Source of the DNA: Candidatus Woesearchaeota archaeon
Lineage (GTDB): Archaea > Nanobdellota > Nanobdellia > SCGC-AAA011-G17 > UBA489
DNA length: 59,735 nt
NCBI GenBank assembly: GCA_964390715.1
Contig: CAYMIM010000016.1
Span: 1-59,735, forward strand
Direction: 5' to 3'
The translations under genes were made by a program, and so were the position numbers. The notes beneath the pieces were generated by a model, which had not been told where the DNA came from, did no database searches, and was given only the letters and a program-made list of their open reading frames with translations. Positions 4,131 to 59,735 of this stretch are shown piece by piece. The first letter of the stretch is position 1. Each line of letters starts with the position of its first letter.

Positions 4131-7100
4131 CCTTGATTATAATTCTCAATCATTTTTGCTATGGTTTCATCGCCACATTGGGCGGTACGATATAACTCTT
4201 GAACATCCCATGAATCCGCATTCCATGTAAATGCTCTATCTATGAATCCCTCATTTAAAGCGCTTAGTAGCTGTGCATAATAAGCTCTTCTCAAGTCGAT
4301 CATTGATTGTGTTTTCCAAGGACTGCTTTGATCATTACAGTTGCTCACACCCTTCCAAGGATTTCTTATTGCGTCAACCATGTCACCACTTCCTCCACCT
4401 ATACCGATCTCAGAAAACTGTAGCGATATTTTTACAGGAATTTTAATATCGTTATTTTTAAATGTTTTGAGATAATACTCTTTCATCGCTTTAAAATCTC
4501 TTTGTTGAGGATAATAACTAACTGAATAATATGCACTCAATCCTAATATATCTACTACGTCGATTAATTTTTGGAATTCTATTTTTTCCTCATCAGAACT
4601 AAACAAATTAGCATCATCTCTTTTTCCGTTCAGATTATTAAAATTGGTGTTTATTCCTATTCTAACATTTTTTGGCATTTTTGCTCGGTATTCTTTAACT
4701 AAAGATAACCAATTAGATGTATACTCGAACAACGTTCTTCCCATCTCTCCTTGCATAGTGAAATCTACAATATTTGTACTTCTGGTTTGCGCTAATGCAT
4801 CATGAAGAGCTATCGCAATCGGTTCTAGAAGAACATCTTTATAAGAATAACCAGCTAAGTTTTCCACTGGGTTAAAAATATATCCATTCCGCCACGTTGT
4901 TCCTTCACCATCGCCTCCATAATCTAAATGAGGTCTTATAGACAAATCCATATCATTATCTAAAACTGCTGAAAAGCATGCCGTTAGCTTCTCTTTTATA
5001 TATTCAATGTTCTCATTGTCCACTATTTTATTTTCTGCATTTGGATAAGTCTTTGGCCACATATATCTTTTTACGCGGTCGTTTTTATCTATATATCCTT
5101 TTAGCGTTGGAATGATGTTTACTGCGGTTGCTCCTTTTTCTTTTGCTTTGAGCACAGTATTAGCACATTCTGCGTAATCTCTATCGATAAATAGACTAAT
5201 TGTCATTCCTAGTGGATGTTCTGCATTATTACCATTAGGATTACAACTAAGCAATTCAGTTTGTATCTCTTCTGAAGTGTCTTTGAGTTGTGTGTTTGTC
5301 GTGAAGATGCTATTTTCTTGCTGACTGGGATTCTTGTTTAATATTTTATTAAAATCACTACCACTGGTTGTTCCTGTAGAAGTTATAGTACTAGGATTTG
5401 TCGACTGGAAATTATTATCTGGTAAACTTTTTTCAGTAGATGTTTGTTTTTTCCTTGTTGGCATTGAAATAACATTCTTATTTGGTATTGCTCTCTTGAC
5501 TTTTATTGTTTCTGATGTTTTCTCTTGACCGTTTCTTGATAACGCAATAAAATAATATTCTTCATCCTCTTCGTCGTTTGTCAATAGAGCTTTCCAAGTT
5601 TGTTTATTAGGCTCGTTGAAAGGGATGCCAAGCGTAGTTATGATCTCATCTCTAGCAAGCCAATCCATTCTTAGTGTCTTTCTTACTTTCATCACTGTTG
5701 CCATTACTAATTCATCTTTACAATCTCCCCTCCACTCTAGCGAAAGATAAACATTTCTTCCCTGTAGAACTTCTACAATTACGTTTTTACCATCGCTCCA
5801 ATAGGTCTCTATAATACTGCAGACTTCTTTTGTAGTTTCTATTGTTTGTGTACTTGTTCCAGATTTTATAGTGAGCGTTAAAGCACTACTTTTTTGTCCA
5901 TTTACATTTATTACCTTTAAGTTATAAACATTTGGAGCAGCACCAGATGCTATTGTCAACTCAATTTCATTTTCATTAAGACGCTTCATAGGAAAATCCT
6001 TAGGATCGAGAATAGTACCGCTTGCTTCAATACCAAATATCTCATCAAATTTGCTTCCCTTGAGAATAATTTTTGTTTCTTTATCATTATTTATTTCTGT
6101 TTGACTTAAACTTGTTAATGCTGGTACTCTAACTGTTGTAGTTGTTACAGATGTTTGTTTTTTGAGACTTATTCGCGCTTCAAGTTCATAGGATTCAGCT
6201 AACTTAAACTGCATTCTTGCTCCATCAGGATCATCTAGGAGAGCACTACCTATCACTTGTTGATAGATCGCACGACCACTTTCAAAAGCATTTGGCGTAT
6301 TTGCGTTTTTGATAATGGCATCTGCTTCTTTTTCCTTGAGAGCAATATCCTCTTTCTTCAAAATATAATATCCTGGAATCGTTTCTCCTTGTTTTTCTGC
6401 TTCATTTACTACTTCTTGCGCAGTTTTCGCTAATGATGTATTTAGGTCAAGACGTGCGCTTACTTCCTTGATTGCATTCTTTGCTGCAGGCACATATAAC
6501 CAACACGTTCCTAAATCTCTTTCTCGATCATCTTCACCACATGTACCAACAGGAGACCATTTTACTTCATCACCACCAACACCAGGATTATATTTGGAAC
6601 ATTTTCTAATGATGCCAGATTGAATGAAACCACTTGAAACCGTACCTGCTGTGCCTTCTACCGCTCCTAGTTCTGTAATAGTTGGAGGACTTGTAGGAAC
6701 ACATTGTGCTGAAGTACTAATCTGTTTTTTTGCTTCATTCTGCGCAAATTGATCTGATATATAATCGATTGCAAAGCTCGTCGATACTTTTCCAAATCCA
6801 CATTCTACCTTTCGACCATAAATCTTGCTGTTAATTTCTACACAAATTTCTTTCATGCCTGATGGCAAGATAACATCTGGACTTTCATCTGCGAACGAAC
6901 CTCTGGGTAAACGTCTATTTTGCGTGATACCTTTACTGTCTTTCAAGACGTGTGGTTGAATAATAAATTGACCTGTGTAAGGATCAAGAGCTTGCATGTA
7001 GACTGAGTAAATTATATCTTCATTATCTCCTGCATAGATATGATATGTCACTTTGTACTGGCTTAAAGGCTGGTTACCTAAGTCTGAATAAGGAGCTTCA

Positions 7101-47439: not shown

Positions 47440-47960
47440 GAAGAATTATTTTCATTGGGACTATACATTGTGGCGCTACGAATGAAAAAGAGTTAGAGTC
47501 ATTATTAAACAACTATAATCCTGATCAACTTCTTGTTGAAATAACACAAGAAGACCTCGATAAAAATAGAATAAATTCTTACCCTCCAGAAATGATTTTT
47601 GCATATAAATGGGCAAAAAAGCATAAAATAAAAGTCAATGGTTTTGACTCTCCCATAGATACTTTAAAAAAAGGCCATACCGCAGAAGATGATAAAAGAA
47701 TAACTGAAGAACAACTAGCGATAGTGAAAAAATATAACTGGAAGGACTTTAATAAAGAAAGTTATTCAAAAAAATTGATGTTTTATGATACATCTATAGA
47801 CTTAAAAAAACACAAGGCAAGAAATGAAGAGATGACTAAAAATATAGAAAGTTTAATACAACCAACTGGAACTGTTGTTATCTTAACAGGCGCTGGAAAT
47901 CTTAATTACTTTGAAAAACATGTCAAAGGCGCTGAATTTCCTCTGCGTTATCCTAAATAA
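47436..47960 (+). CDS. TraB/PrgY-like small protein (tentative)
   Basis: The N terminus IIFIGTIHCG...NPDQLLVEI resembles the TraB family GT-x-H...VELC start. ATGA overlap with map. Confidence 0.35.
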   Translation: MRRIIFIGTIHCGATNEKELESLLNNYNPDQLLVEITQEDLDKNRINSYPPEMIFAYKWAKKHKIKVNGFDSPIDTLKKGHTAEDDKRITEEQLAIVKKYNWKDFNKESYSKKLMFYDTSIDLKKHKARNEEMTKNIESLIQPTGTVVILTGAGNLNYFEKHVKGAEFPLRYPK

Positions 47961-50653
47961 CTTGGCCTTTGCGCAATGACACTGGCTATTTTTGCTTTTC
48001 TCAAGTACTTCTCTTCTACGTCTTTGTATCTTTTCAGATCTTCTTCTTTGAGCGATGGAGAAACTTTACTCAATGCTTCTTCAAAGTCTGCGCTCGTGAC
48101 TTCAGTGGCTTCATTGTCTTTTCTAAGCGCATGCATGGCTGCTTCACGAGCAATACCATAGATGTCTGCACCGCTATATCCTTCTGTTCGCTCTGCTATC
48201 TTGTCTAGGTCAATATCTTTTGCCAACGGCATTTTACCAATATGCACTTTCAAAATTGCTAGACGTGATTCCTTATTAGGCATGTGTGCTTGGATGACTC
48301 TGTCGAATCTTCCTGGACGCAAAAGACTTGGATCCATGAGATCGGGACGATTTGTTGCTGCAATAACTACAACATCCGCTAATTCTTCCAGACCATCCAT
48401 TTCAACAAGCAGTGTATTGACAATACGCTCAGTCACATTTGAACCGATGTCTGTTCCTCTTCGCGGAGCGATAGAATCAATTTCGTCGAAAAAGATAATC
48501 GTCGGAGCCGCTTGTCTTGCTTTTTCAAAAATCTTGCGAACTGCTTTTTCTGATTCACCTACATATTTATTTATCACTTCAGGTCCTTTGACGGAAATAA
48601 AATTTGCTTCAGATTCATGAGCAACAGCTTTCGCCAACATAGTTTTACCCGTACCTGGAGGACCGTAGATTAAGATGCCCCGTGGCGGTTTGATGCCGAG
48701 GCGTGAAAACATCTTTGGATTTTTGAGTGGCCATTCCACAGCTTCTTTCAATTGTTGTTTCAACTCTTGTAATCCACCAATATCTTCCCAGCGCGTTGTT
48801 GGTCTTTCAATCAAGACTTCACGAAGAGCTGATGGACGAACTATCTTGAGTGCTTCCTTAAAATCTTTTGGCTTTATTTTTAACTTCTCTAAAACTTCAG
48901 GAGGAATCTTTTCACTTTCATTTTTTAAATCTGGCAGGACACGACGAATGACATTCATAGCCGCTTCCTTACATAACGCCTGAAGATCCGCGCCAACGAA
49001 TCCGTGTGTAATCTCTGCTAATCTCTCAAGTTCTTTCTTTACACTTTTGTCTCTGACACGATCATAGAAACTTGAACTAATAATTTTAAGCTCCTTAAGA
49101 TCCCTTATAATTGGCTCTAAGTCTTCAGCAATTAATTTACTCTTCTTTTTTTCCAAAAGTATTGCTCTGGCATCACTTTCTTCTATTTTCTCTTTATGTC
49201 TTTCTATTTGATATAATTCTTCTATGACTGCGTCTAATTTATCCTTTTGTGAAAATAATTTGCTATACTGCTCTAATTTTTCTAACTTCGTATTTACTCC
49301 ATGTAGTATATTTGCAAGCTTATCTAAGAAGGACTTTTCTCCAGCTTTTTTCACTTTTAATTCATTGATCTGCTGTTCTGTTTTTTCTCTTTCTACCTTA
49401 TTATCTTTGAGATGTACTTCTATTTCATACACTAACTCTTTCCCCATAATCTCCTTATCTAGAGGGACTTCTATAGGCATATTACGAGTATGAATTTTTA
49501 AAATATTGAGACGGCCTTTTTTATTTGGAACGCCTATGGATATTTCTCTGTCAAATCTTCCAGGACGACGTAACGCTGGATCAATAGAATTTGGACGATT
49601 TGTTGCACCAATAACAACCACTTTACCACGACTCTTTAATCCGTCCATAACCGTTAACAATTGCGAAACCATTCTTCTCTCAACCTCTCCATAAGTTTCG
49701 TCACGCTTTGGAGCGAGAGCATCGATCTCGTCAATGAAAATAATAGAGGGAGCATTTTTTTCCGCCTCCTCAAACAAATCACGAATACGTTTTTCTGTTT
49801 CCCCATAGAACTTTGATGTAAGCTCCGGTCCGTTTACAAGTAAAAAGTTTGCCTCAGTTTCATATGCTACTGCTTTAGCTAACAATGTTTTACCAGTTCC
49901 TGGAGGACCATAGAGCAAGACTCCTTTTGGAGGCTCCACACCTAAACGCTCGAAGATTTCCGGGTTCTTGATAGGAAGCTCGACCATTTCTCTCAATTTA
50001 TCGATCTCTTCTTTTAATCCACCAATATCTTCATAGGTGACATCAGGGACACGCTCTTCTGTTACCTGCACCGCCTTGGAAGACACTTTAACTTCTGTAT
50101 TCTCTGTAATAATAACCGCGGTCTTAGGATTTGATTCAGCGACAATAAATTTCAAACTACCAAAACCAAAATTACCCATGAATCCCTCTTCGAACACGTT
50201 GAAGATATCATCGAAGTTTGATCCTGAAAGCGTTCTGCGACGACGTCTTGCTCCACCAAGAGAAATAATATCTCCTTTGACGACCGCTCTTCCCAGTAAT
50301 CCTTGCTTGAACAACTCATTATTCGCTTGAATCATGACACCTTGCTGCGCTGGCGCGATGGTGACTGATTTCGCTTCTTTTACTTCTACTTTTCTTACCT
50401 TGACATTTTCACCAATACCTGTTTTCGCGTTACGACGAAGGATACCATCCATACGAATAATCGTTTGACCAATATCAGAAGGATAGGAACGATCGACAAT
50501 ACCTACGGTCTTCCTGCCACCTTCAATTTCAATGATATCTCCCGCGCGAACGTCAATCTGACGCATGGTCTGCGCATCTATACGGACGATACCTTTGTAG
50601 GCTTCTTCCTGTAAAGCTTCCTGCACTTTGAGTGAGATTTCTTGCTGCGCCAT
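47948..50653 (-). CDS. cdc48: CDC48/VCP-type AAA+ ATPase with large insertion in D1
   Basis: It has an N domain and two AAA modules (GPPGTGKT twice, DEID twice, SRH regions). The length is 901 aa, with a Lys/Glu coiled-coil block between NMPI and [13 protein letters not shown]. Confidence 0.9.
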
Positions 50654-50658
50654 AGGAA

Positions 50659-51033
50659 TTACCTCGCAAAACCATCCTTCATAAATCTTTTCAATTTACC
50701 TGAGAAGAAGATGCTTATTTTTTCTGGACTGTCTAGAGACAAGCGAATCATGTCATCCATTTCACGACGCATTTCCTCTTCAAACTCAATAATTTCACGC
50801 GGGATAGAAATGGTGTATGAATTACCCACAAGACGCAATTTGACCTGAAATTGTTTGCTTCTTAATTTCTGGAAGTTCTCGTATTCCTGCATATCCAAAG
50901 GATGAGGCCATATCTTTTGGCAGCCGTTACAGCGCCAAGCGCGCATGCGAAACCCTTCCTTTTCTGTGAGAATCTTCTCTGTCTTATTGTCACATTCTTC
51001 ACAGACGATGGTCGTTTCAAAGATATCTTTCAT
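50659..51033 (-). CDS. Zinc-ribbon + AbrB/SpoVT-like small protein
   Basis: CEECDN...CNGC forms the zinc ribbon, followed by VKLRLVGNSYTISIPREI. It ends 5 nt upstream of the cdc48 ATG. Confidence 0.45.
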   Translation of the reverse strand: MKDIFETTIVCEECDNKTEKILTEKEGFRMRAWRCNGCQKIWPHPLDMQEYENFQKLRSKQFQVKLRLVGNSYTISIPREIIEFEEEMRREMDDMIRLSLDSPEKISIFFSGKLKRFMKDGFAR

Positions 51034-51118
51034 GTGTATACGGTTAAGTGTATACTATTTAAAGGTTACGATTGCATTACCTAAATCATTTTAAATTCAA
51101 ATCATCGAAAGTTTTCTT

Positions 51119-51772
51119 ATGGATTTACTGACTGATTTTATTAATAGTTTAAAGAAGGAATTGACGGTCGTCTATGGTGGTCCCGCATCTGGCAAGACTC
51201 TCCTCTGTCTGACCGCCGCCGCGCATATAGTGAAACAGGGGAAGAAAGTCATTTTCATTGATACTGAAAAAGGATTTTTTATAGAACGATTTCAACACCT
51301 GCTTCACTCCCAAGATCCAAAATATCTAGATTTAGTCATTGTTTTCAGACCAGCAAATTTCAAAGGACAGCATGAACAGATTTTGCAACTGGAAAAAATT
51401 CTTCAACAACCCAACATAGGACTGCTCATTGTAGATACTTTAGGCTATTATTACAGAAGGCTCTTGAAGAACAAAACGCTCTTGGCAAACAGAATGCTGA
51501 TTATGCAAGTGAACACGCTGCGCTCCTACGCAAAACATCTTCCAGTCATAGTCACCAATCAAATCTATATGGACATCGAGACACAGGCACAGAAAATTGT
51601 TGGAGGAGAGATTTTATTACGGTCTGGACAACGCATTATTGAACTCCAGAAAGATCCTAGAAAACTACTGCTCAAGCAACCTGAGAAAAAAGAATCACTT
51701 TTCACCATCGACGCCACTGGCTTCCACTTTTGCGTTCTTTTCTTGCTGCTTTTTTATCCACTCTTCCTTTAG
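51119..51772 (+). CDS. radB: RadB (RecA/RadA paralog)
   Basis: It has Walker A GGPASGKT and Walker B LLIVDT, and is about 217 aa. The hydrophobic last 25 codons overlap the topA 3' end on the opposite strand. Confidence 0.7.
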   Translation: MDLLTDFINSLKKELTVVYGGPASGKTLLCLTAAAHIVKQGKKVIFIDTEKGFFIERFQHLLHSQDPKYLDLVIVFRPANFKGQHEQILQLEKILQQPNIGLLIVDTLGYYYRRLLKNKTLLANRMLIMQVNTLRSYAKHLPVIVTNQIYMDIETQAQKIVGGEILLRSGQRIIELQKDPRKLLLKQPEKKESLFTIDATGFHFCVLFLLLFYPLFL

Positions 51773-53809
51773 TTTACATTGCTTGTTAATACAGTAATTA
51801 AAAGGACGCTTTCCCTGGCGGATGATCAGGACTTCCGGGAAATTACACTCTTTGCAGAAATTCTTCGTTACTTTTGGCAGACCTTGCGGCAAACCGAATG
51901 TGGCTTTACATTTTGGATATGCTGAACAACCGACAAAATTGCTCTTGAATTTTGGCGAATATCTCAATTGCAAGTCGCCTTGCTTGCAGAGGGGGCAGGG
52001 AGCAATGGTACTCATTTCCGTGCGCGTTTCTTTGGTCGCTAGTAATAATCCTTGACCGATCTCTTTCTCGTGCTTCTTGAATGTTGTCAATATTTTTGTC
52101 AATGATTCCTTGGCTTCTTTGATAATATCTTCTGGCTTCTTTTTTTCCTCGCGAATTAATTCCATATCTTCCTCAAAGTGACGAGTCAAATGCTCATCGA
52201 TAATTTCTGGACAATATTTTTCCAGTGTCTCTACAGCCGCGATGCCCAATTTTGTCGCCTCAATAGATTTTTCATGCACATATTGTCGTCGATAGAGCGT
52301 GTCAATAATGTTTGTGCGTGTCGCTTTTGTTCCAAGATTTCTTTTTTCTAATTCTTTGATGATAGACGCTGGAGTAAAACGCTTGGGCGGTTTTGTCTGG
52401 TCTTCCAAAGAGGTTACTTGTGGATTCTTGACTTCCATACCTTCTTCCATAGGCGGCAATTCTTCGTCTTTTTCTTTCGCGTAAGCCCCATAGAAGGTAT
52501 ACCAACCAGCTTCTTTCGTGACTGATCCACGAGCGATAAAGTTTTCTCCATTGACGTCAATATCTGCTTTCATCAATTCATTTTTCGCTGGGTCTGCAAA
52601 TGTGGCTAATGTTCTGCGAGCGACTAGATCATAGATTTTAGCGTCTCTTTCTGTCAGCTTCTTTGGCACTTCTCCTGTCGCGTGAATAGCTGGGTGAGCT
52701 GGATCATTTTTTGGACCTTCATTGGGCTTGAGTATTTTTTTCTTGAGCAATCGCTCCGCTAACTCCTTGAACGCGCTTTGCTTGCCTAAATCTTGGATAA
52801 TTTTTTTGTAGTCTAAAGCGATAGGCAACTTATTAGAGCTAGAACGAGGATAAGAAATATATCCATGGAGATACAGATTTTGCGTGATGGACATCGTCTC
52901 TTTAGGAGAGATACCAAAACAACGATAAGCTTCTGTCTGCAAAGTCGTTAAGTCGAACGGATAAGGTGGCTGGACCAACATCTCTTTTTTCTTGACGGAA
53001 GTAACGACAGCTTTTTTTCCTTGTGTCTTTTTCAACACTGTCTCCGCTTTCGCTTTTTCCCAGAACTTGTCTTCTTCGTGCCACGCGATGATGGGTTCTT
53101 TATCGACATTACCCTCGAGCTTTAATTCCCAATAGGTTTCTGGCTTGAATTTCGCGATCTCACGATCTTTGTCTACGATGATTTTCAACGCTGGCCCCTG
53201 GACACGACCTGTCGAGAGAATTTTGAACATACCCGCGGTTTTCAGCGCCAAAGTTAACGCGCGAGAGTTGTTGATTCCATAAATCCAATCCAATTCGTGA
53301 CGAGTAATACCCGCGTGCGCTTGGTCCCAGTCCATGTGCTTCATTTTGCGCTCATAAGAGTCTACTAAATCTTTCTTCGTTAACGTTGAGAATTTCATTC
53401 TATTGGCATCTTTTTGGCCGCAGGCGAAACGCACCGCATTCAATCCCAAGACTGTCCCTTCGTCATCGAAATCTGTGCAGACGGTGAAGACATCCGCGTT
53501 TTTCGCCAGCTTTTTGAGCGTGTCAATAAAGTCTTTGGTTTGACTGGCGAATTTTCCCTGCTCATACAACGGTTTCCATTCATAACTGAAGACTGGATAA
53601 GTCCATCCTTTTTTGTCTTTCTCCGCAAGACCATAGAGATGGCCCAGACAACTAGCAATGATAATGGGTTTTCCTTTATGGGCGAAAGTATAATACGTGA
53701 CTTTTTTGTTTTTTCCCTGAGTAACTTTGTCATCCGCCAGAGCTTCCGCTATCTTCTTCGCGCTTGTTGGCTTCTCCGCGATAAGCAACTCATACGATTC
53801 CGCTTTCAT
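51695..53809 (-). CDS. topA: DNA topoisomerase I (type IA) with C-terminal zinc ribbons
   Basis: It has a Toprim N terminus (LLIAEKPSxAKKIA, DxDxEG as TDFDDEG) and a catalytic Tyr region (GYISYPRS). C-terminal CxxC...CxxC fingers are present. Confidence 0.9.
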   Translation of the reverse strand: MKAESYELLIAEKPTSAKKIAEALADDKVTQGKNKKVTYYTFAHKGKPIIIASCLGHLYGLAEKDKKGWTYPVFSYEWKPLYEQGKFASQTKDFIDTLKKLAKNADVFTVCTDFDDEGTVLGLNAVRFACGQKDANRMKFSTLTKKDLVDSYERKMKHMDWDQAHAGITRHELDWIYGINNSRALTLALKTAGMFKILSTGRVQGPALKIIVDKDREIAKFKPETYWELKLEGNVDKEPIIAWHEEDKFWEKAKAETVLKKTQGKKAVVTSVKKKEMLVQPPYPFDLTTLQTEAYRCFGISPKETMSITQNLYLHGYISYPRSSSNKLPIALDYKKIIQDLGKQSAFKELAERLLKKKILKPNEGPKNDPAHPAIHATGEVPKKLTERDAKIYDLVARRTLATFADPAKNELMKADIDVNGENFIARGSVTKEAGWYTFYGAYAKEKDEELPPMEEGMEVKNPQVTSLEDQTKPPKRFTPASIIKELEKRNLGTKATRTNIIDTLYRRQYVHEKSIEATKLGIAAVETLEKYCPEIIDEHLTRHFEEDMELIREEKKKPEDIIKEAKESLTKILTTFKKHEKEIGQGLLLATKETRTEMSTIAPCPLCKQGDLQLRYSPKFKSNFVGCSAYPKCKATFGLPQGLPKVTKNFCKECNFPEVLIIRQGKRPFNYCINKQCKLKEEWIKKQQEKNAKVEASGVDGEK

Positions 53810-53923
53810 ACTATGAACTAGTCCATCCCGCTATTAATAAATCTTTTTAGGCCTTGTTGATTCTGTTGAGAATGTTGTCGCTTAGCGTGACAGTCAATAA
53901 TAGCATTTAGAAGTATCGAACAG

Positions 53924-54616
53924 TTATTTTAATTTATTTTTTAATAGTCTCAAGCTTCTTATTGTGCTAGAACAAAATTGTCCTACTTCGTGTTCTTTTA
54001 AATCTTTAAATCGCAGATCCACATTTCTAAAGGCGTTTTTAAACAATTTTAGAGCATCTTCGTTTACGACCGCTGTGATAAACTCTTCTATCAACTTAAT
54101 AACTTCTTGGTTATGTCTAAACGTATGAATATTAATACGAGTTGTTAAGTGCGCTATATCGTAGAGGTCTTTGAATTCTCTTCTACTGATGAACGTCACC
54201 ATCTTTGTGATAAATAGCCTTTCCGGAGAATAATACAACAATTTTCCTTTATTATGAAGATTCCCAGAGATTTTAACAAAATCAACATCTATTTTTGTGT
54301 CAAATGTTTTATATGTTTCTAATTGTAGTTTCATGTGGTATCTCTTGGTAGCCGCTAATCCGCTCTTACCTTTTGAGAATTCTTTAAGAATCTTTTTTTG
54401 TTTTAGTTTTTCCAGAATGTTGATAAAATACGCTTCTATTTCTTTATAATCTTTTAGACGAGATATGTCTACATCAAAATCTAGGTCTTCAGATTCACGA
54501 TGGTGATCGAGATACAACAAAGATAAGGCTGTACCTCCTTTAATAACAAGATTGTAAGGATTGTTTCTTTCAATTTCATTCAGAAATTTTTCTAAAATTG
54601 CAAGTATCCTTGACAT
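53924..54616 (-). CDS. AbiEii/AbiGii-family nucleotidyltransferase toxin
   Basis: LVIKGGTALSLLYLDHHRESEDLDFDV is the family GG-T-A...S-x-D-L-D motif. Confidence 0.7.
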   Translation of the reverse strand: MSRILAILEKFLNEIERNNPYNLVIKGGTALSLLYLDHHRESEDLDFDVDISRLKDYKEIEAYFINILEKLKQKKILKEFSKGKSGLAATKRYHMKLQLETYKTFDTKIDVDFVKISGNLHNKGKLLYYSPERLFITKMVTFISRREFKDLYDIAHLTTRINIHTFRHNQEVIKLIEEFITAVVNEDALKLFKNAFRNVDLRFKDLKEHEVGQFCSSTIRSLRLLKNKLK

Positions 54617-55222
54617 TCAAACTCCGTATTTCGCATAATTAATTATTTCTGGTTTTTGAATATATGACTTAAATTTGGTATAATTTTTTACAAATAGATT
54701 TCCATACCTATTTAACATTTGTTTCCATACATTTTTCGCATATGTATTTTTTATTATGTTTATATCCTTGATTATTTGCTCATTGTCGGCATATTTTAAT
54801 CCTGTCTTTTTGTCGATGGAATATTTACTTTTTTCTATTGATTTGACTCTGAAAAACTTTACTGTTTTATGCGCAATACTAAGTTTTCCTTCTATCTTTG
54901 TGTTTATGATCTCTATGATCTTAGACTCAAAATACCACCCAAATCCATTATGTTTCAACGCTTCTAATCCTGTGATATAATAAGACTCTAAGCTACCTAA
55001 GAATACATTATACTCGCTTATACCTTCAATGCTACTGTCCATACATCTCTTAAGTATGTTTAACTTACCTCTCATTTTTCCTCTTAAATACCTTTTTTCG
55101 TTATCTGTTAATTCTTTTCCTATATCGAGTTTTTTTAGTATATTAAATTGCACTGGTTTAAAGAGCGTTGGAACTATTAAATCCTCCATTTCCACTAGTT
55201 TTTGTATTATTTTTTGATGCAT
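54617..55222 (-). CDS. Putative AbiEi-like antitoxin partner
   Basis: Its stop directly abuts the AbiEii ATG (TGAATG). The assignment is by position and size only. Confidence 0.4.
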   Translation of the reverse strand: MHQKIIQKLVEMEDLIVPTLFKPVQFNILKKLDIGKELTDNEKRYLRGKMRGKLNILKRCMDSSIEGISEYNVFLGSLESYYITGLEALKHNGFGWYFESKIIEIINTKIEGKLSIAHKTVKFFRVKSIEKSKYSIDKKTGLKYADNEQIIKDINIIKNTYAKNVWKQMLNRYGNLFVKNYTKFKSYIQKPEIINYAKYGV

Positions 55223-55289
55223 AGGATATAAATGTATCCGCTACTATATAAATGCTTCTATCAAAAATAGTGGGTGTATTTGGAAATGC

Positions 55290-55366
55290 TCATCCGTAAA
55301 CGCTTCCGCTATCTTCTTCGCGCTTGTCGGCTTCTCCGCGATGAGCAACTCGTATTTTTCAGGCAT
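55290..55366 (-). pseudogene. Displaced topA 5' fragment (copy B)
   Basis: The minus strand reads ATG-MPEKYELLIAEKPTSAKKIAEAFTDE then diverges and stops. In the 52-nt core I aligned there are three third-position differences from the live topA start. Confidence 0.8.
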
Positions 55367-55444
55367 GATTATCTTTCTGTTGTTTGTATATTTTTATGAA
55401 GTGCAGCGAAAAAAGATAAACCCAGCACATGTTCTCTATTCAAA

Positions 55445-55801
55445 CTACTTCTTTTTTCTTACTGCTTTCTTGAATTTTTTGTCTAAATATTCAACTTCAT
55501 TCAGCATCATTCTTTTAAGAAGAGTCCATTCATAGAGATTGTGAGTTTTTCCCCTGTATTTGTCCCAATATTTCCTATTTAACTGGTTAGGAGCATCTTC
55601 CAGCTTCATTAGCCTGCCTTTCCAGAAAATTAAAACATAGACATTGCCATTATGAAGTTCGAGAGGAACTCTCCATCCAAAAGCATCGTGATCTTCTTTA
55701 TAAGGAGAGAGCTTATCTAAAATCTCCAGATCTTTCTTTTTCAAATTCTTTAATCTTGCTCCAAAATCATTATACCTTAAGTAAAAAGTAGTTGTCCCCA
55801 T
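55445..55801 (-). CDS. Hypothetical 118-aa protein coupled to Arch_ATPase gene
   Basis: ATG 55801 lies 1 nt after the ATPase stop (TAA-A-ATG). I recognise no family. Confidence 0.5.
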   Translation of the reverse strand: MGTTTFYLRYNDFGARLKNLKKKDLEILDKLSPYKEDHDAFGWRVPLELHNGNVYVLIFWKGRLMKLEDAPNQLNRKYWDKYRGKTHNLYEWTLLKRMMLNEVEYLDKKFKKAVRKKK

Positions 55802-55802
55802 T

Positions 55803-57170
55803 TTATCTTTTCTCAAGTATATCTTCCATGTCTTTTAAATCAAAACAATAAACTTTTTTCCCTTCAAACTCTTTAATTTTTTTGGTAAAGCTTTTCGCAA
55901 AAACAACAAAGCTCTCTTTTCTTTCATCATTATTCCATGCGATATACTTTGATTTTTCTAAAAGCATTTTTACAATTTCGAAAACATTAACCTTCTCTTG
56001 CCATTTGCACTCTCCAAACAAGATACTTTTTTCCTTATTATTCACCGCAAGAATGTCAATTTCTTTGTCCTTATACCACCATTTGCCATTATCCTCAAAA
56101 TTTTTGAAAAAGGATAAAAAATTTTCCCTGATAAGCATCTCAAACCGTTTTCCTAAATAGCTGTTTAATTCATCATTATTTATTTTATACTCTCGCTTTT
56201 CTATTGACTCTCTATTTTTATGCACAATATTAAACCAAAAATCAAAAAAATTATCCCTTATATAATAGATACCTCTTTTTCTATCTCCCAACATAGAAGT
56301 TTGTCTCGAGATAAATCCATAATTTATCAAAAGCTCTAGATAGGGATATATCTCCCTTGCCTGAATTCCAACAAAATTCGCAATTCCAGAAGGTCGTGAA
56401 CTTCCATACGCAATCGCATTTATAATAGAAAAATAAGTCTTAATCTCTTTAAACTCCTGCGCAAGCAAATAAACAGGCTCTCGAAAAAAATAACCTTCCG
56501 GCTTTAAAAATTCTTCTGAGACAAACTCTGAATATGCCTTATGTTTAGAAGCAATATTGAGGTACTCTGGGATTCCATTTATTGTCAAAAATGTTTTTAT
56601 CAAATCCTCAAAATGAAAAGAGAGAAATTCATTTACAAATCCAATAGGAATTGGCGCTAGTAGAATATCTCTTGTTCTTCTTCCATAAAGAGGAGAAGAG
56701 CTTGACAAAACTTTCTCACTCATTAATCCGAATAAAGAGCCGCTTGTGATGAAAAAAATTCTAGATTCTCTTAAGAATTCATCATTAAATTTTTGTAAGA
56801 CGCTTGTGACAGAAGAATCGTTTTTTATTACGTAGGATAACTCATCTATCCATATGTATATCCTTTTCTCTTTACTTAAAACTTTTGCAAGATAATCAAA
56901 TAAAGAACTCCAGTCAGAAATATGCTGTTTCAGCAAAAAATCATCCTTGAGATACTTCGCTATTATGTCTTTAAATTGCACGATCTGCACAGCTTTATTA
57001 ACATCCTCAGCAGTATACTTTATCCCTTCTTTATTCTTAACAAACTCATTTAACAAAGTAGTTTTGCCTATTCTCCTTCTGCCAAAAACTACGATAAATT
57101 CATTTTTCTTGCTTCTCCAGTCTTTTTCAAGAACCTTTATCTCCTCTATTCTATCAATAAACCTAATCAT
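55803..57170 (-). CDS. Archaeal ATPase (Arch_ATPase/ATPase_2) with C-terminal DUF234 module
   Basis: FIDRIEEIKVLE...VVFGRRRIGKTTLL is the Walker A region and IYIWIDELSYV is Walker B. There is a wH-like middle region and a C-terminal EIDILAV...ILFGECKW, which is DUF234, PD-(D/E)xK-like. Confidence 0.75.
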   Translation of the reverse strand: MIRFIDRIEEIKVLEKDWRSKKNEFIVVFGRRRIGKTTLLNEFVKNKEGIKYTAEDVNKAVQIVQFKDIIAKYLKDDFLLKQHISDWSSLFDYLAKVLSKEKRIYIWIDELSYVIKNDSSVTSVLQKFNDEFLRESRIFFITSGSLFGLMSEKVLSSSSPLYGRRTRDILLAPIPIGFVNEFLSFHFEDLIKTFLTINGIPEYLNIASKHKAYSEFVSEEFLKPEGYFFREPVYLLAQEFKEIKTYFSIINAIAYGSSRPSGIANFVGIQAREIYPYLELLINYGFISRQTSMLGDRKRGIYYIRDNFFDFWFNIVHKNRESIEKREYKINNDELNSYLGKRFEMLIRENFLSFFKNFEDNGKWWYKDKEIDILAVNNKEKSILFGECKWQEKVNVFEIVKMLLEKSKYIAWNNDERKESFVVFAKSFTKKIKEFEGKKVYCFDLKDMEDILEKR

Positions 57171-57230
57171 AATTAGTACTAATCTAAATTAGTATATAAA
57201 TCTTTCGCTCTTAAATCAGTGTTTGTAGAG

Positions 57231-57292
57231 TCCGCTATCTTCTTCGCGCTTGTCGGCTTCTCCGCGATGAGCAACTCGTATTTTCCAGGCAT
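57231..57292 (-). pseudogene. Displaced topA 5' fragment (copy C)
   Basis: The minus strand reads ATG-MPGKYELLIAEKPTSAKKIA then diverges. It is identical to copy B over about 60 nt except for one base. Confidence 0.8.
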
Positions 57293-57317
57293 GCAAGCAT
57301 CTACTAATTCTAAGGTG

Positions 57318-58775
57318 TTAAAAATGTTTCTTTCGCTTAGCTCTATCTTTTGAGCCAGTCATATATTTATAAACTACAAAAGCCACCATCAATGCTAATA
57401 AGAAAACTACACCCCATAAATCTTTATTCAAAAGGGCTTTTGTTATGTTTGATCTCTCTTTTTCCCGTGTTTTTTCTTTAGCTGGCTCTTCTGGAATCTT
57501 CTCAATAATTTTTTGTCTCTTTTCCTCTCTCTGCAGTTTTGTTACTGTAATGGTTATCATATTTTGATTTATATCTTCAAGCAAGATCTTAATATCCTCT
57601 TCTCCATCAAAATCAAGATCTAGAGACACACCTTGTCCTTTTCCAAGATTAACTTTTATACCTAACACCGCAAAGTCTAGTAAGACTGTATCTGCGGATG
57701 GCTTTCCCACCCTCGCACTATATTCTTCCTTACCCCATAAGATGTAAATTTTTCCTATTCTTGCTACAGTATTTGTCTGCTCAACAAATTGATTCATGTC
57801 GAATGAAGCTATTGTGGCAGTTCCCTTTTGACCTCCGCCTCCGCCACCACCTCCAAGTCCATCATCACTAGATCCTCCGCTACCCCCAGAAACGCTCTCA
57901 GAAACTTCATATTGCGAGAAGCCACTTACTATAACCGCGAGCGTTTGCTCATTCAAGGTTTGTGATGTGCAAATAGTAGCTGGACAAGCATCACCGTTAC
58001 GCAACACTTGCGGGTTTGAGAAAGTAATATTATAAAAATTGAGCGCTGCCGCTATTCCTTCCAGATTCGTGAACACAGTCTCGTTGATCCGGATAGTGTT
58101 ATTTTCTATAACAACAAAAGAGTCAAAATCTATAGGAGAGTCAGACAAATTAAAATCACTTAAATTTATATTTTGAAGGAACTGAATCTTGCCGAATGAC
58201 GTGTCTTCTAACGTTAAATTAGTTACATTTTGAAGTTCTGTTTCGTTGAATAAATTAAAGTTTGTGGTTGATCCGTCGAATATCGACGCGTTTACTTCAA
58301 ACCTTATCGATCCATTGACCGCGAAAAACTTCATTGAGACTCCCATTTCATTCCCTGTATTGTTCGCGAAGACTTTGATCGCATGATATCCAAATGGCGC
58401 GTCTATGGTAGTTTGGTTCGTTCCATTGTTATCCATTACAAGCGAAATATTTACTTCTTCATCAATGGTATAAAATACCTTATCGACTGACAAGCTAGAA
58501 CTGTTTACAACAGTAATCTTTAAAGGTATAGACTCATTATTTTCGTATGTTTTATTTTCAGGCCTATTCATGGTAATTATGGGAGGTCTCGCCTCAAGCG
58601 TTGCTGAGACTGACGTTGTTCCTGATGTCGCCGCAGCATCAAACACTGAAGCAGCGTCAATTTTGGACATTCCCTCTTTGAGAATATCTGTTGAGCCTAT
58701 AACCACCAATACAAAAAGAACGCTTAAAGGAAAAAGGAACCTGAACGAGGACAGATAGTTATTACCATCGCGCAT
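57318..58775 (-). CDS. Sequon-rich secreted protein with Gly linker and C-terminal TM anchor
   Basis: It has an N-terminal hydrophobic signal or anchor and many N-x-S/T sequons. A GGSGGSSDDGLGGGGGGGG linker and the C-terminal TM VVFLLALMVAFVVY plus a basic tail follow. Confidence 0.65.
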   Translation of the reverse strand: MRDGNNYLSSFRFLFPLSVLFVLVVIGSTDILKEGMSKIDAASVFDAAATSGTTSVSATLEARPPIITMNRPENKTYENNESIPLKITVVNSSSLSVDKVFYTIDEEVNISLVMDNNGTNQTTIDAPFGYHAIKVFANNTGNEMGVSMKFFAVNGSIRFEVNASIFDGSTTNFNLFNETELQNVTNLTLEDTSFGKIQFLQNINLSDFNLSDSPIDFDSFVVIENNTIRINETVFTNLEGIAAALNFYNITFSNPQVLRNGDACPATICTSQTLNEQTLAVIVSGFSQYEVSESVSGGSGGSSDDGLGGGGGGGGQKGTATIASFDMNQFVEQTNTVARIGKIYILWGKEEYSARVGKPSADTVLLDFAVLGIKVNLGKGQGVSLDLDFDGEEDIKILLEDINQNMITITVTKLQREEKRQKIIEKIPEEPAKEKTREKERSNITKALLNKDLWGVVFLLALMVAFVVYKYMTGSKDRAKRKKHF

Positions 58776-59403
58776 TTTGGCCGTCTACGTTTGCTTTACG
58801 TCCTTTTCTTGATCTGCGAAGAAGCAACCAGACTATTACTACTATGATTAAGACAATGAGCGCTGGTGTCGCTGGTTTTTTTAAGAGTTCTACTGGTGAT
58901 TTTTGTGGCGTCGCTATTGTAGGCGCAATTGTTTCTTTATGTTCTTGGCTTGATTCTGTACTAATAATAAGATCAAATGTCTTTGTTATTCCGACACCTA
59001 GAGCAACCTGCTGCTCTCCTTCTTTTTTGAGTGTCTTAAACGCGACAGTAACAGGCATAACTGTCCCTATCTTCGCGTCAGATGGAACTGCAATGATTAT
59101 AGTTACTGGAATGTCTTTTGTTTTTGCTGGCACTTTATACACTGGTACCTTGTCCTTAAATGTTACATAAGGATTTGGCTGTTCAAGCTCCGCCTGCAGA
59201 GTAAAGTCCTCGTCACCCACCATATTTTGCAAGAGATAAGTCACTTCTCTCGTTTGCCCTGGCTGCAGACTTAAAGGATTTTCCTTCCGGTAAAAAGAAG
59301 TTACCGCTACAGCGTCCACGTGCTGCATTATCCAAATTAAGCTAAAGAAGATAAATATTACTAAGAGTACTCTTCTTTTTATGATTTTTGTTGTTCTTCT
59401 CAT
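58762..59403 (-). CDS. Secreted beta-sandwich-like protein with C-terminal TM anchor
   Basis: It has a signal or anchor VLLVIFIFFSLIWIM, an Ig-like strand pattern, and the C-terminal TM LIVLIIVVIVWLLL followed by RRSRKGRK. It overlaps the next gene by 14 nt. Confidence 0.6.
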   Translation of the reverse strand: MRRTTKIIKRRVLLVIFIFFSLIWIMQHVDAVAVTSFYRKENPLSLQPGQTREVTYLLQNMVGDEDFTLQAELEQPNPYVTFKDKVPVYKVPAKTKDIPVTIIIAVPSDAKIGTVMPVTVAFKTLKKEGEQQVALGVGITKTFDLIISTESSQEHKETIAPTIATPQKSPVELLKKPATPALIVLIIVVIVWLLLRRSRKGRKANVDGQNARW

Positions 59404-59735
59404 TTATATCACCGACACTGTCCAGCCTGTGCCATTCACTGTCGAATAAGTTTGAGCGCTTACTGAAGGAACTAAGTTTAAACACACATATAAATCCTCG
59501 ATACCTGCGGTGCTGATCGAGCGATTACCCGCATAGAGAAGCGAGCTGTTCACGCCGATTGCTGTGTTGTTCACCAGCTGCGCTAGTTCTGTAGCATTAC
59601 ATTCCAAAGCTGGAGATCCGCCAGTTTCTGTACCGACGGTGAAATTTTCCGCGGTGAGCGCTTCTGAGACAGTAACTTCTCCGACGAGATCTAAACCAGT
59701 AACGCGAGTGTTATTCATATCGATGTTATCATTTC
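59404..59735 (-). CDS. Sequon-rich surface protein, N terminus beyond window
   Basis: The frame stays open upstream of Met 59718 to the window edge. Seven N-x-S/T sequons occur in about 100 aa. Its stop abuts the next ATG (TAAATG). Confidence 0.5.
   Translation of the reverse strand, partial: NDNIDMNNTRVTGLDLVGEVTVSEALTAENFTVGTETGGSPALECNATELAQLVNNTAIGVNSSLLYAGNRSISTAGIEDLYVCLNLVPSVSAQTYSTVNGTGWTVSVI

Follow-up and report, generated by a model that had tools for sequence, protein, structure and literature searches.

A small modular gene behind a PDC-S27-type ATPase-nuclease gene in an accessory cassette of a Woesearchaeota-like genome

The DNA considered here is a stretch of 59,735 nucleotides (nt) from a Candidatus Woesearchaeota archaeon (contig CAYMIM010000016.1 of assembly GCA_964390715.1), referred to below as the window. 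Its minus strand carries two adjoining open reading frames (ORFs). The first, of 455 residues (55803–57170), encodes a protein of the PDC-S27 type of the PADLOC database, i.e., an AAA+ ATPase with a predicted winged helix and a DUF234 domain of the PD-(D/E)xK class. The second, of 118 residues from its ATG (55445–55801, minus strand; an upstream TTG start would give 123 residues), encodes a basic protein that belongs to a conserved family without a name, and is called the rider gene in what follows. What is new here is this small family and the way its genes recur, closely spaced, after PDC-S27 and PDC-S01 genes in genomes of the DPANN type and beside PDC-S10, AbiE, MNT-HEPN and Fic genes in bacteria. 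We read the rider as a modular, co-expressed add-on to defence-type effectors, and would assign this reading a probability of about one half.

An initial annotation of the locus had proposed a candidate two-gene defence module. Its account of the genes themselves was confirmed on the sequence, namely the extent of the pair (55445–57170), the two lengths and the single base at 55802 that separates the ATPase stop codon from the ATG of the small ORF; the minus-strand junction reads ...AAAAGATAAaATGGGG, in the order TAA-a-ATG. Its interpretation is partly supported: the large gene is a further member of the known PDC-S27 candidate class, and the small one is a new modular rider gene.

The rider gene and its partners

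A word-seeded search with the small protein returned 300 candidates, of which 293 were homologues at E ≤ 0.01. The best 120 of the 293 were 58–88% identical to it and 95–153 residues long, and the named sources of homologues were Woesearchaeota, Pacearchaeota, Nanoarchaeota, Aenigmarchaeota, Omnitrophica and Armatimonadota. When the ORF was compared with 84 homologues, the differences per site were 0.28, 0.20 and 0.53 at codon positions 1, 2 and 3, a pattern that indicates purifying selection on the protein. Judged by its homologues and by this third-position divergence, the small ORF is a real gene. The initial annotation had recognised no family for it, and the profile searches agreed, giving no match in Pfam (E ≤ 0.1), NCBIfam, PADLOC or PHROGs (E ≤ 1). 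An exhaustive profile search of 1.84 billion representatives (50% clustering) gave 49 matches at E ≤ 0.001 and 31 at E ≤ 1e-10, many of them fragments; no longer, fused form of the protein was found, in a search that the tool itself rates as weak evidence. By these searches the family is compact, without distant relatives or fusions. In an alignment of 40 sequences the N-terminus MGTTTF was nearly invariant, and 17 positions were invariant throughout (G42, E48, L49, H50, N51, L57, W60, G62, L64, A70, L74, Y78, E91, W92, L95, D107 and F110).

The neighbourhood of the rider was analysed in 28 loci from genomes and 80 from metagenomes, in which flanking ORFs were called by a simple longest-ORF rule and scanned against Pfam. 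This rule gave an upstream ORF at 26 of the genome loci and 71 of the metagenome loci, making 98 with the window. In 34 of these 98 loci an ATPase-nuclease gene lies directly upstream on the same strand, of the ATPase_2/DUF234 type in 10 (including the window) and of the AAA_14/DUF4143 type in 24, and 31 of the 34 have a gap of at most 6 nt. For the 71 metagenome loci the upstream genes were AAA_14/DUF4143 (19), ATPase_2/DUF234 (9), Metallophos (6), HEPN (5), AbiEii (5), HATPase_c_4/Fic-like_C (4) and YhcG (3), with Fic, RNase_T, HTH_24, an IS91 transposase and DUF167 found once each, Rad51-like and VapB (opposite strand) also once each, and no family for 13. AAA_14/DUF4143 was directly upstream in 5 of the 28 genome loci, and RNase_T, Metallophos, HEPN, Fic, AbiEii and YhcG were among the genes in that position at others. 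When these partners were run against PADLOC, all 12 AAA_14/DUF4143 proteins tested matched PDC-S01 (down to 5.8e-110), all three full-length DUF234 proteins matched PDC-S27, and two of three Metallophos proteins matched PDC-S10.

A tree was built from 87 distinct small proteins of at least 100 residues; duplicates and shorter ORFs were left out, as were six loci in which no MGT start was found, except for L155, which was added by hand. With few alignment columns and many forks left unresolved, the tree is relied on only for its starred split. This split (98/93) sets off a clade of 42 rows, which holds all 14 rows of named bacterial genomes (Omnitrophota, Planctomycetota, Elusimicrobiota, Pseudomonadota and Bacillota), none of the ATPase-linked rows, and every row linked to Metallophos, AbiEii, HEPN, HATPase_c_4 or YhcG. 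Among the remaining 45 rows are the window, every one of the 7 rows from named DPANN genomes and the full set of 29 ATPase-linked rows (10 DUF234, 19 DUF4143). Five of the 16 non-ATPase rows in this archaeal branch have less than 400 nt of upstream sequence; with these set aside, an ATPase link is seen for about 29 of the 40 rows that are informative. Rows of the two ATPase types are intermixed, with 8 changes along the tree needed for the DUF234 label and 12 for the DUF4143 label, which indicates that the small gene switched repeatedly between these types. An early reading, that the small gene has nothing to do with ATPases (a DUF234 homologue had been seen nearby in only 2 of the 28 genome loci), was overturned by the Pfam scans and the tree.

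The modularity of the rider was also apparent at the nucleotide level. When the window is compared with loci that have another kind of gene upstream, similarity begins 0–5 nt before the ATG of the small gene; between the window and DUF234-linked loci it reaches 233–290 nt upstream, into the ATPase. The closest relative of the pair, at metagenome locus L079, has a small protein 92% identical to that of the window, with an ATPase that is 33% identical over residues 1–360 and 75% over residues 361–455. In steps of 60 nt, identity to this locus was 37–65% over ATPase codons 1–360 and 63–70% over codons 361–420, then 88–97% from position 55910 (about codon 421) to 55431, and fell to 37% past the stop codon of the small gene. 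The segment held in common (55431–55910, minus strand) thus spans the last ~35 ATPase codons and the whole of the small gene. The simplest reading of this alignment would be that two PDC-S27 genes of deep divergence recently exchanged the ATPase tail along with the small gene. For residues 421–450, identity to the window was 76–93% in L079, L131 and L155, which are linked to the small gene, and in L003, and 23–60% in 17 of 18 unlinked ATPases, the exception being L034 with 73%. Linked ATPases may thus have more window-like tails, a signal that is suggestive only, since the ATPase of L003 precedes a different small ORF.

A further metagenome contig (L080, 507–965) carries an ATPase-deleted allele in which the small gene is ~85% identical to that of the window at the nucleotide level. 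Here, the promoter region and the first ATPase codons (window 57200–57149, 92% identical) are joined to the tail and the small gene (55867–55452), with a 9-nt overlap at the joint, so that a TATA-like box (TTTATATA) and the rider are retained despite the loss of the ATPase. A Rad51/RadB-like gene lies upstream on the other strand of this contig.

The allele without an ATPase could be viewed as an orphan antitoxin, and a toxin-antitoxin (TA) arrangement was considered, in which the ATPase-nuclease (in bacteria AbiEii, HEPN or Fic) would be toxic and the small basic protein would inhibit it until infection. The position of the small gene behind the toxins of complete TA pairs (AbiEi-AbiEii-small in L023; MNT-HEPN-small in L015 and L026) is compatible with this, as is the tight coupling of the two genes in translation. 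Antitoxins, however, co-evolve with their toxins, and the small protein is 58–92% identical across partners of unrelated folds, with no sign of co-variation. Moreover, the AbiE and MNT-HEPN pairs already own antitoxins, and most PDC-S27 genes exist without the small gene, so that the ATPase is not lethal alone. We regard this arrangement as improbable.

Several results weigh against reading the rider as an add-on to the gene before it. No small-family ORF occurred within 3 kb in any of 37 ATPase-homologue loci (species-representative genomes, best-segment identity 31–48%; phmmer and family hidden Markov model at E ≤ 10). In a set of 240 genomes from the window's order, 35 had DUF234 (66 matches, 1–13 per genome) and 4 had the small gene, and only one of the 66 DUF234 genes, that of the window itself, adjoins a small-family gene. 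In 64 of the 98 callable loci something other than such an ATPase lies upstream, and in tightly packed genomes short gaps alone are no proof of a functional link. As for the small protein, nucleic-acid binding is suggested by charge only (pI 9.8, with 10 Lys or Arg residues within the last 23). A Foldseek search of the PDB with its model, itself of moderate confidence, gave nothing at E ≤ 0.001 (best E 5.5); a wide VIA-align search of 48,161 chains reached a best Z of 3.6, on the C-terminal helix only. On viral contigs there were 19 pattern matches to the family and no confirmed relative, so that a virus-related origin is not shown. Finally, PDC-S27 is an untested candidate; the source preprint (bioRxiv 10.1101/2024.01.29.577857) says as much of the 145 PDCs, and PMC12988326 describes PDCs likewise.

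The small gene might instead be autonomous, i.e., a self-contained island gene that is either a single-gene defence or counter-defence system of its own or a selfish gene, and that only borrows the expression of the gene upstream, with the ATPase working alone, as the PDC-S27 entry in the catalogue supposes. The diversity of its upstream neighbours, the conserved unit sharply bounded at the ATG, the allele that deleted the ATPase and kept promoter and rider, and the scarcity of the rider beside ATPases (0/37 and 1/66) all favour such a view. So does the shallow family, with its 49 representatives at 50% clustering scattered over DPANN archaea and several bacterial phyla, as for a horizontally moving gene. 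On the other hand, in 29 of the 45 rows of the archaeal branch the small gene comes after one architectural class of ATPase-nuclease, with unchanged order and a spacing of at most 6 nt in nearly all cases, which is far above chance adjacency, and the linked ATPases have the more similar tails described above. We hold the autonomous gene to be unlikely on balance, although it is a serious competitor.

For the two-gene module first proposed, the outcome was divided. The order ATPase–small gene recurs (34/98), and co-occurrence is conserved from the side of the small gene within the archaeal branch. It is not conserved from the side of the ATPase, where it was seen in 0 of 37 and 1 of 66 cases, so that a dedicated two-gene system, with conservation from both sides, was not what was found; PDC-S27 is catalogued as a single gene, and the small gene follows unrelated genes and persists after loss of the ATPase. 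Prediction of a complex between the two proteins gave a score of 0.00 in two runs made without controls and is no evidence either way.

In the reading that we prefer, the small gene would not be a dedicated subunit of any one system. It would be a modular rider at the 3' end of defence-type genes, mostly behind PDC-S27 or PDC-S01 ATPase-nucleases in the archaeal branch and in the company of AbiE, MNT-HEPN, Fic, YhcG or the PDC-S10 phosphoesterase in the bacterial branch. Recombination would carry it from gene to gene, along with a little of the tail of the gene upstream. Since its sequence is nearly constant while its partners change, the protein most likely acts on a universal target, e.g., nucleic acid contacted through the basic helix at its C-terminus, rather than on a surface peculiar to one partner. 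It probably supplements or modulates the action of the effector that it follows, whichever that is. In the window, it would be made from the same transcript as the ATPase by termination-reinitiation, because stop and ATG are 1 nt apart.

The AlphaFold2 model of the small protein (pLDDT 74, by the predicted local distance difference test; predicted template modelling score, pTM, 0.42) has a beta-rich first part and a long terminal helix. The best match to a PDB sequence in a profile search had an E of 0.22, and the ESM Atlas gave no usable match. The ELHNGN motif, which lies on a beta hairpin, was considered as a His-Me finger and dropped, since conserved metal ligands are lacking in the helix that follows and no structure of that fold came up in the searches. 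Given the moderate confidence of the model, the protein may yet have a known fold.

Some further observations concern the surroundings of the rider. Directly downstream of it, a Metallophos gene was found in 9 of 69 metagenome loci, mostly after a gap of 6–9 nt. This order recurs in the bacterial clade, at nine metagenome loci and four others (among them L015, L016 and L027). The downstream phosphoesterases are 146–207 residues long as called, and the two tested (L097 and L015) matched PDC-S10 at ~1e-68. From gene order, rider and Metallophos may form a second conserved pairing of the small family. In four loci, several of them from Omnitrophota, the ~60 nt before the ATG of the rider are conserved, with a hairpin-like stretch and then GAGGAAATAATAAATT; at three others (L007, L016 and L028) the shared upstream DNA is the 3' end of Metallophos, which L016 retains although it has no called Metallophos ORF. 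In bacteria, the small gene seems to travel with its own leader. In the Pacearchaeota locus L003 (2–1772), a different ORF, of 121 residues and without a Pfam family, comes 1 nt after an ATPase_2/DUF234 homologue. This ORF was rejected as a member of the small family, there being no BLASTP alignment to the small protein at E ≤ 100; the same locus also holds an AAA_14/DUF4143 gene followed by a true family member. Other small riders may occupy the same position behind ATPases.

The ATPase-nuclease protein

The 455-residue protein matched Pfam ATPase_2 (PF01637) over residues 4–192 (1.5e-20; 74.4 bits, gathering cut-off 33.2) and DUF234 (PF03008) over residues 312–392 (9.4e-20; 71.3 bits, gathering cut-off 22.5), with a weaker match to AAA_14. 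In PADLOC it matched two PDC-S27 models over residues 3–451 (PDLC04984, 1.7e-46; PDLC04985, 2.8e-27), and PDC-S01 weakly (1.1e-07). Sequence searches of the PDB with hmmsearch gave 2qen (1.6e-25) and 2fna (1e-22) over residues ~4–285.

The motifs named in the initial annotation proved to be conserved in an alignment of 29 sequences. Walker A (G30–T37, GRRRIGKT; 57060–57083, minus strand) has G30, R32, R33, G35 and K36 invariant, and Walker B (residues 106–112, IWIDELS; 56835–56855) has D109 and E110 invariant. The C-terminal module had been described as PD-(D/E)xK-like. Here, D372 of the EID motif and K389 are invariant and E387 of the GECKW motif is retained in at least 90% of the sequences (D372...E387-C-K389; 56004–56057, minus strand). 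In the AlphaFold2 model (pLDDT 93.9, pTM 0.90), D372 and E387-x-K389 lie on consecutive strands (369–377 and 382–389) that follow a helix at 332–349, as in the usual PD-(D/E)xK core.

Between the two domains, residues ~242–304 (56259–56447, minus strand) would form a winged helix. This assignment draws on a weak match to TrmB (residues 242–292; E 0.003, below cut-off), on the model, in which helices at 243–283 are followed by a beta hairpin at 287–304, and on likeness to 2qen, 2fna and Cdc6. The best Foldseek matches were 2qen (3.9e-13) and 2fna (1.8e-11), followed by Orc1/Cdc6 initiators and by STAND proteins such as Apaf-1; the closest folds also include TnsC, and the list for the whole protein is filled by the AAA+ part. 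The agreement of Pfam, PADLOC, PDB-sequence and Foldseek results, together with the invariant motifs, identifies the protein. It has the ATPase_2 and DUF234 domains, an AAA+ P-loop NTPase module, the PDC-S27 profile and the PD-(D/E)xK residue pattern; overall, an AAA+ ATPase of the Orc1/Cdc6 kind is joined to a predicted winged helix and a nuclease-like PD-(D/E)xK domain. From this architecture, it would work as an NTP-driven switch, with a winged helix, that binds nucleic acid and licenses the nuclease domain to cut it.

Steczkiewicz et al. 2012 (PMC3424549) include DUF234 as well as DUF4143 in the PD-(D/E)XK superfamily. Passages of a 2026 survey (PMC12988326) present PDC-S01 and PDC-S27 as single-gene candidates obtained by 'guilt-by-embedding', describe PDC-S27 as an ATPase fused to a PD-(D/E)XK member, place both among the commonest defence candidates in Archaea, and report DPANN archaea to be enriched in AbiE, SoFic and several PDCs. 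No small partner gene was described in the literature seen on DUF234, DUF4143, PDC-S27, PDC-S01 and PDC-S10, which did not cover the supplements of two PDC papers that possibly list neighbours.

The cassette at the topA 5' end

The pair appears to be a two-gene operon within a strain-specific accessory cassette, for which the 5' end of topA would have been the site of insertion; the genome is a small one of DPANN type (Woesearchaeota-like). A TTTATATA box lies 22 nt upstream of the ATPase ATG (57193–57200, minus strand), and the same box precedes the AbiEi-like gene next door at similar spacing (repeat D6), each cassette having its own TATA-like box; from its sequence and position it is likely to be the archaeal promoter of the cassette. 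An oligo-T tract ~30 nt past the stop codon of the small ORF (55409–55414, minus strand) is a possible archaeal terminator.

The att-like topA repeats that had been noted on either side of the cassette are real copies of the topA 5' end. Three direct repeats of 63 nt (repeat family D1) occur at 53745–53807, the start of the working topA, and, displaced from it, at 55305–55367 and 57231–57293. Identity is 98% between the two displaced copies, and 83% when they are compared with the working one. That at 57231–57293 (minus strand, beginning MPGKYELLIAEKPTSAKKIA) is the upstream boundary of the cassette, and that at 55305–55367 (minus strand, MPEKYELLIAEKPTSAKKIAE) separates it from the AbiE cassette. 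The neighbouring pair (53924–55222) consists of AbiEii (Pfam, 1.4e-21) and a weak AbiEi-like protein (PADLOC, 0.0012). The AbiE neighbour and the defence-island context of the initial annotation both held.

The topA gene itself is a genuine Topoisom_bac gene, and its working copy in the window begins MKAESYELL. In a genome of the same genus (G001), topA begins MPEKYELLIAEKPTSAKKIAEAL, and the two displaced copies in the window read MP(E/G)KYELLIAEKPTSAKKIA, the native topA N-terminus of that genome. Because the displaced repeats read like the N-terminus in G001 and the working topA differs, the displaced copies look like the ancestral topA 5' end, and inserted DNA seems to have brought in the working one. 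The layout of the array fits single-crossover insertion of circular DNA bearing a short topA 5' fragment.

The accessory nature of the region was seen in four genomes of the same genus (70–87% complete), in all of which the ATPase/small-gene region was absent at the DNA level; in one of them the genes before topA were unrelated to those of the cassettes. In G001 (locus L077 on contig C34, minus strand), a TnpB-like ORF of 413 residues (5115–6356; Cas12f1-like TNB domain, 4.8e-21; OrfB_IS605) lies between a homologue of a surface protein and topA, in place of the defence cassettes. By this comparison, the site upstream of topA takes up different mobile DNA in different strains. Contigs from four public DNA runs, compared over 53600–57500, broke at the topA repeats, and none bridged the region by skipping a cassette. 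In one run (X3), a contig joins 55877 to 57050 (short side 34 nt) and resembles the ATPase-deleted form; being metagenomic and of 85% likeness, it is too weak to count.

Such surroundings also bring to mind the remnant of a mobile element, with neither gene defensive, the ATPase being a replication or partition factor and the small protein a DNA-binding accessory. The closest folds of the ATPase (Orc1/Cdc6 initiators and TnsC), the duplicated target-gene fragments on both sides, as in integrated elements, and the lower G+C (0.30–0.32 over 54001–57000, against 0.41–0.43 over 50001–54000, one step of 0.40 excepted) could all be so explained. The cassette, however, has no integrase, replication origin or other mobile-element gene inside it. 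There is no integrase near the array, and the only two Phage_integrase (tyrosine recombinase) matches of the genome are on other contigs (C31 and C34). Initiators do not characteristically carry the PD-(D/E)xK triad that is conserved here, TA or defence-candidate genes make up the great majority of neighbours of the two families over 108 other loci, and viral contigs gave no match. We attach little credence to this explanation.

It may be noted that beyond the cassette, three consecutive ORFs of 485, 213 and 104 residues (57318–59718, minus strand) look like surface proteins: N-x-S/T sequons are numerous, and there are a Gly-rich stretch and hydrophobic anchors at the C-terminus. Pfam has no family for two of them, and the 485-residue one has only a match below cut-off; they are conserved at ~50% identity in a genome of the same genus. 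A Cdc48-like double AAA protein of 901 residues (47948–50653, minus strand) has a long, charged, coiled-coil-like insert of ~140 residues between its ATPase modules. The homologue in G001 aligned in two blocks that skip residues 400–540 of the window protein.

Comparison with known systems

In DPANN-type genomes, a sizeable subset of PDC-S27 and PDC-S01 genes carries a conserved, closely coupled small gene, though the class is treated as single-gene. The mosaic between the window and L079 and the ATPase-deleted allele of L080 are clear examples of defence operons in very small genomes that were rebuilt by recombination at gene ends. A bolder extension, which we consider doubtful, is that the small family is a universal plug-in for compact immune genes in archaea and bacteria, working with at least three candidates that are taken to be single genes (PDC-S27, PDC-S01 and PDC-S10) and with AbiE, MNT-HEPN and Fic modules. 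It would be grafted by recombination on to 3' ends with a piece of the tail, and might serve as a shared trigger sensor or as a nucleic-acid-binding co-effector responding to some feature common to all invading nucleic acid. If true, some single-gene candidates would be two-part systems in small-genome organisms. Should the small protein prove inert or autonomous, the locus would be another copy of PDC-S27 in an accessory cassette.

Among proteins of known structure, the archaeal AAA+ ATPases PABY2304 (PDB 2qen) and SSO1545 (PDB 2fna) share the AAA+ module and winged helix with the ATPase of the window. Unlike it, they are ~350 residues long, lack the C-terminal DUF234 domain and have no known function. 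The Orc1/Cdc6 proteins are replication initiators and, unlike the window ATPase, have no nuclease domain.

Integron gene cassettes resemble the array in being short tandem units of one or two genes in the same orientation, bounded by repeats and often carrying TA or defence genes. They differ in that the repeats of the window are direct 63-nt copies of the topA 5' end and not attC hairpins, that no IntI integrase is adjacent, and that each cassette has its own TATA-like box; the array is thus not an integron. Nor does the pair behave as a toxin-antitoxin pair, the small protein being 58–92% identical behind unrelated effectors instead of co-varying with them.

In tripartite TA systems with a chaperone-type third gene, a small gene is appended to a complete effector module and co-translated with it. 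The rider is like such third-gene additions to TA and abortive infection (Abi) systems in its position behind a complete effector module; it differs in having no sequence or fold likeness to them and in not being tied to one toxin family.

The closest counterparts are in PADLOC. PDC-S01 (AAA_14 and DUF4143) has the same plan as the window ATPase, i.e., a P-loop ATPase, a helical or winged-helix part and a PD-(D/E)xK domain, and precedes the small gene more often than any other partner does (24 loci; all 12 proteins tested match it). Both of its domains belong to other Pfam families, and the window protein is not a member. PDC-S27 has the same ATPase and PD-(D/E)XK architecture, and the window ATPase matches two of its models; whereas PDC-S27 is catalogued as a single gene, the window and 9 metagenome loci have a conserved downstream gene, which in the window follows after 1 nt.

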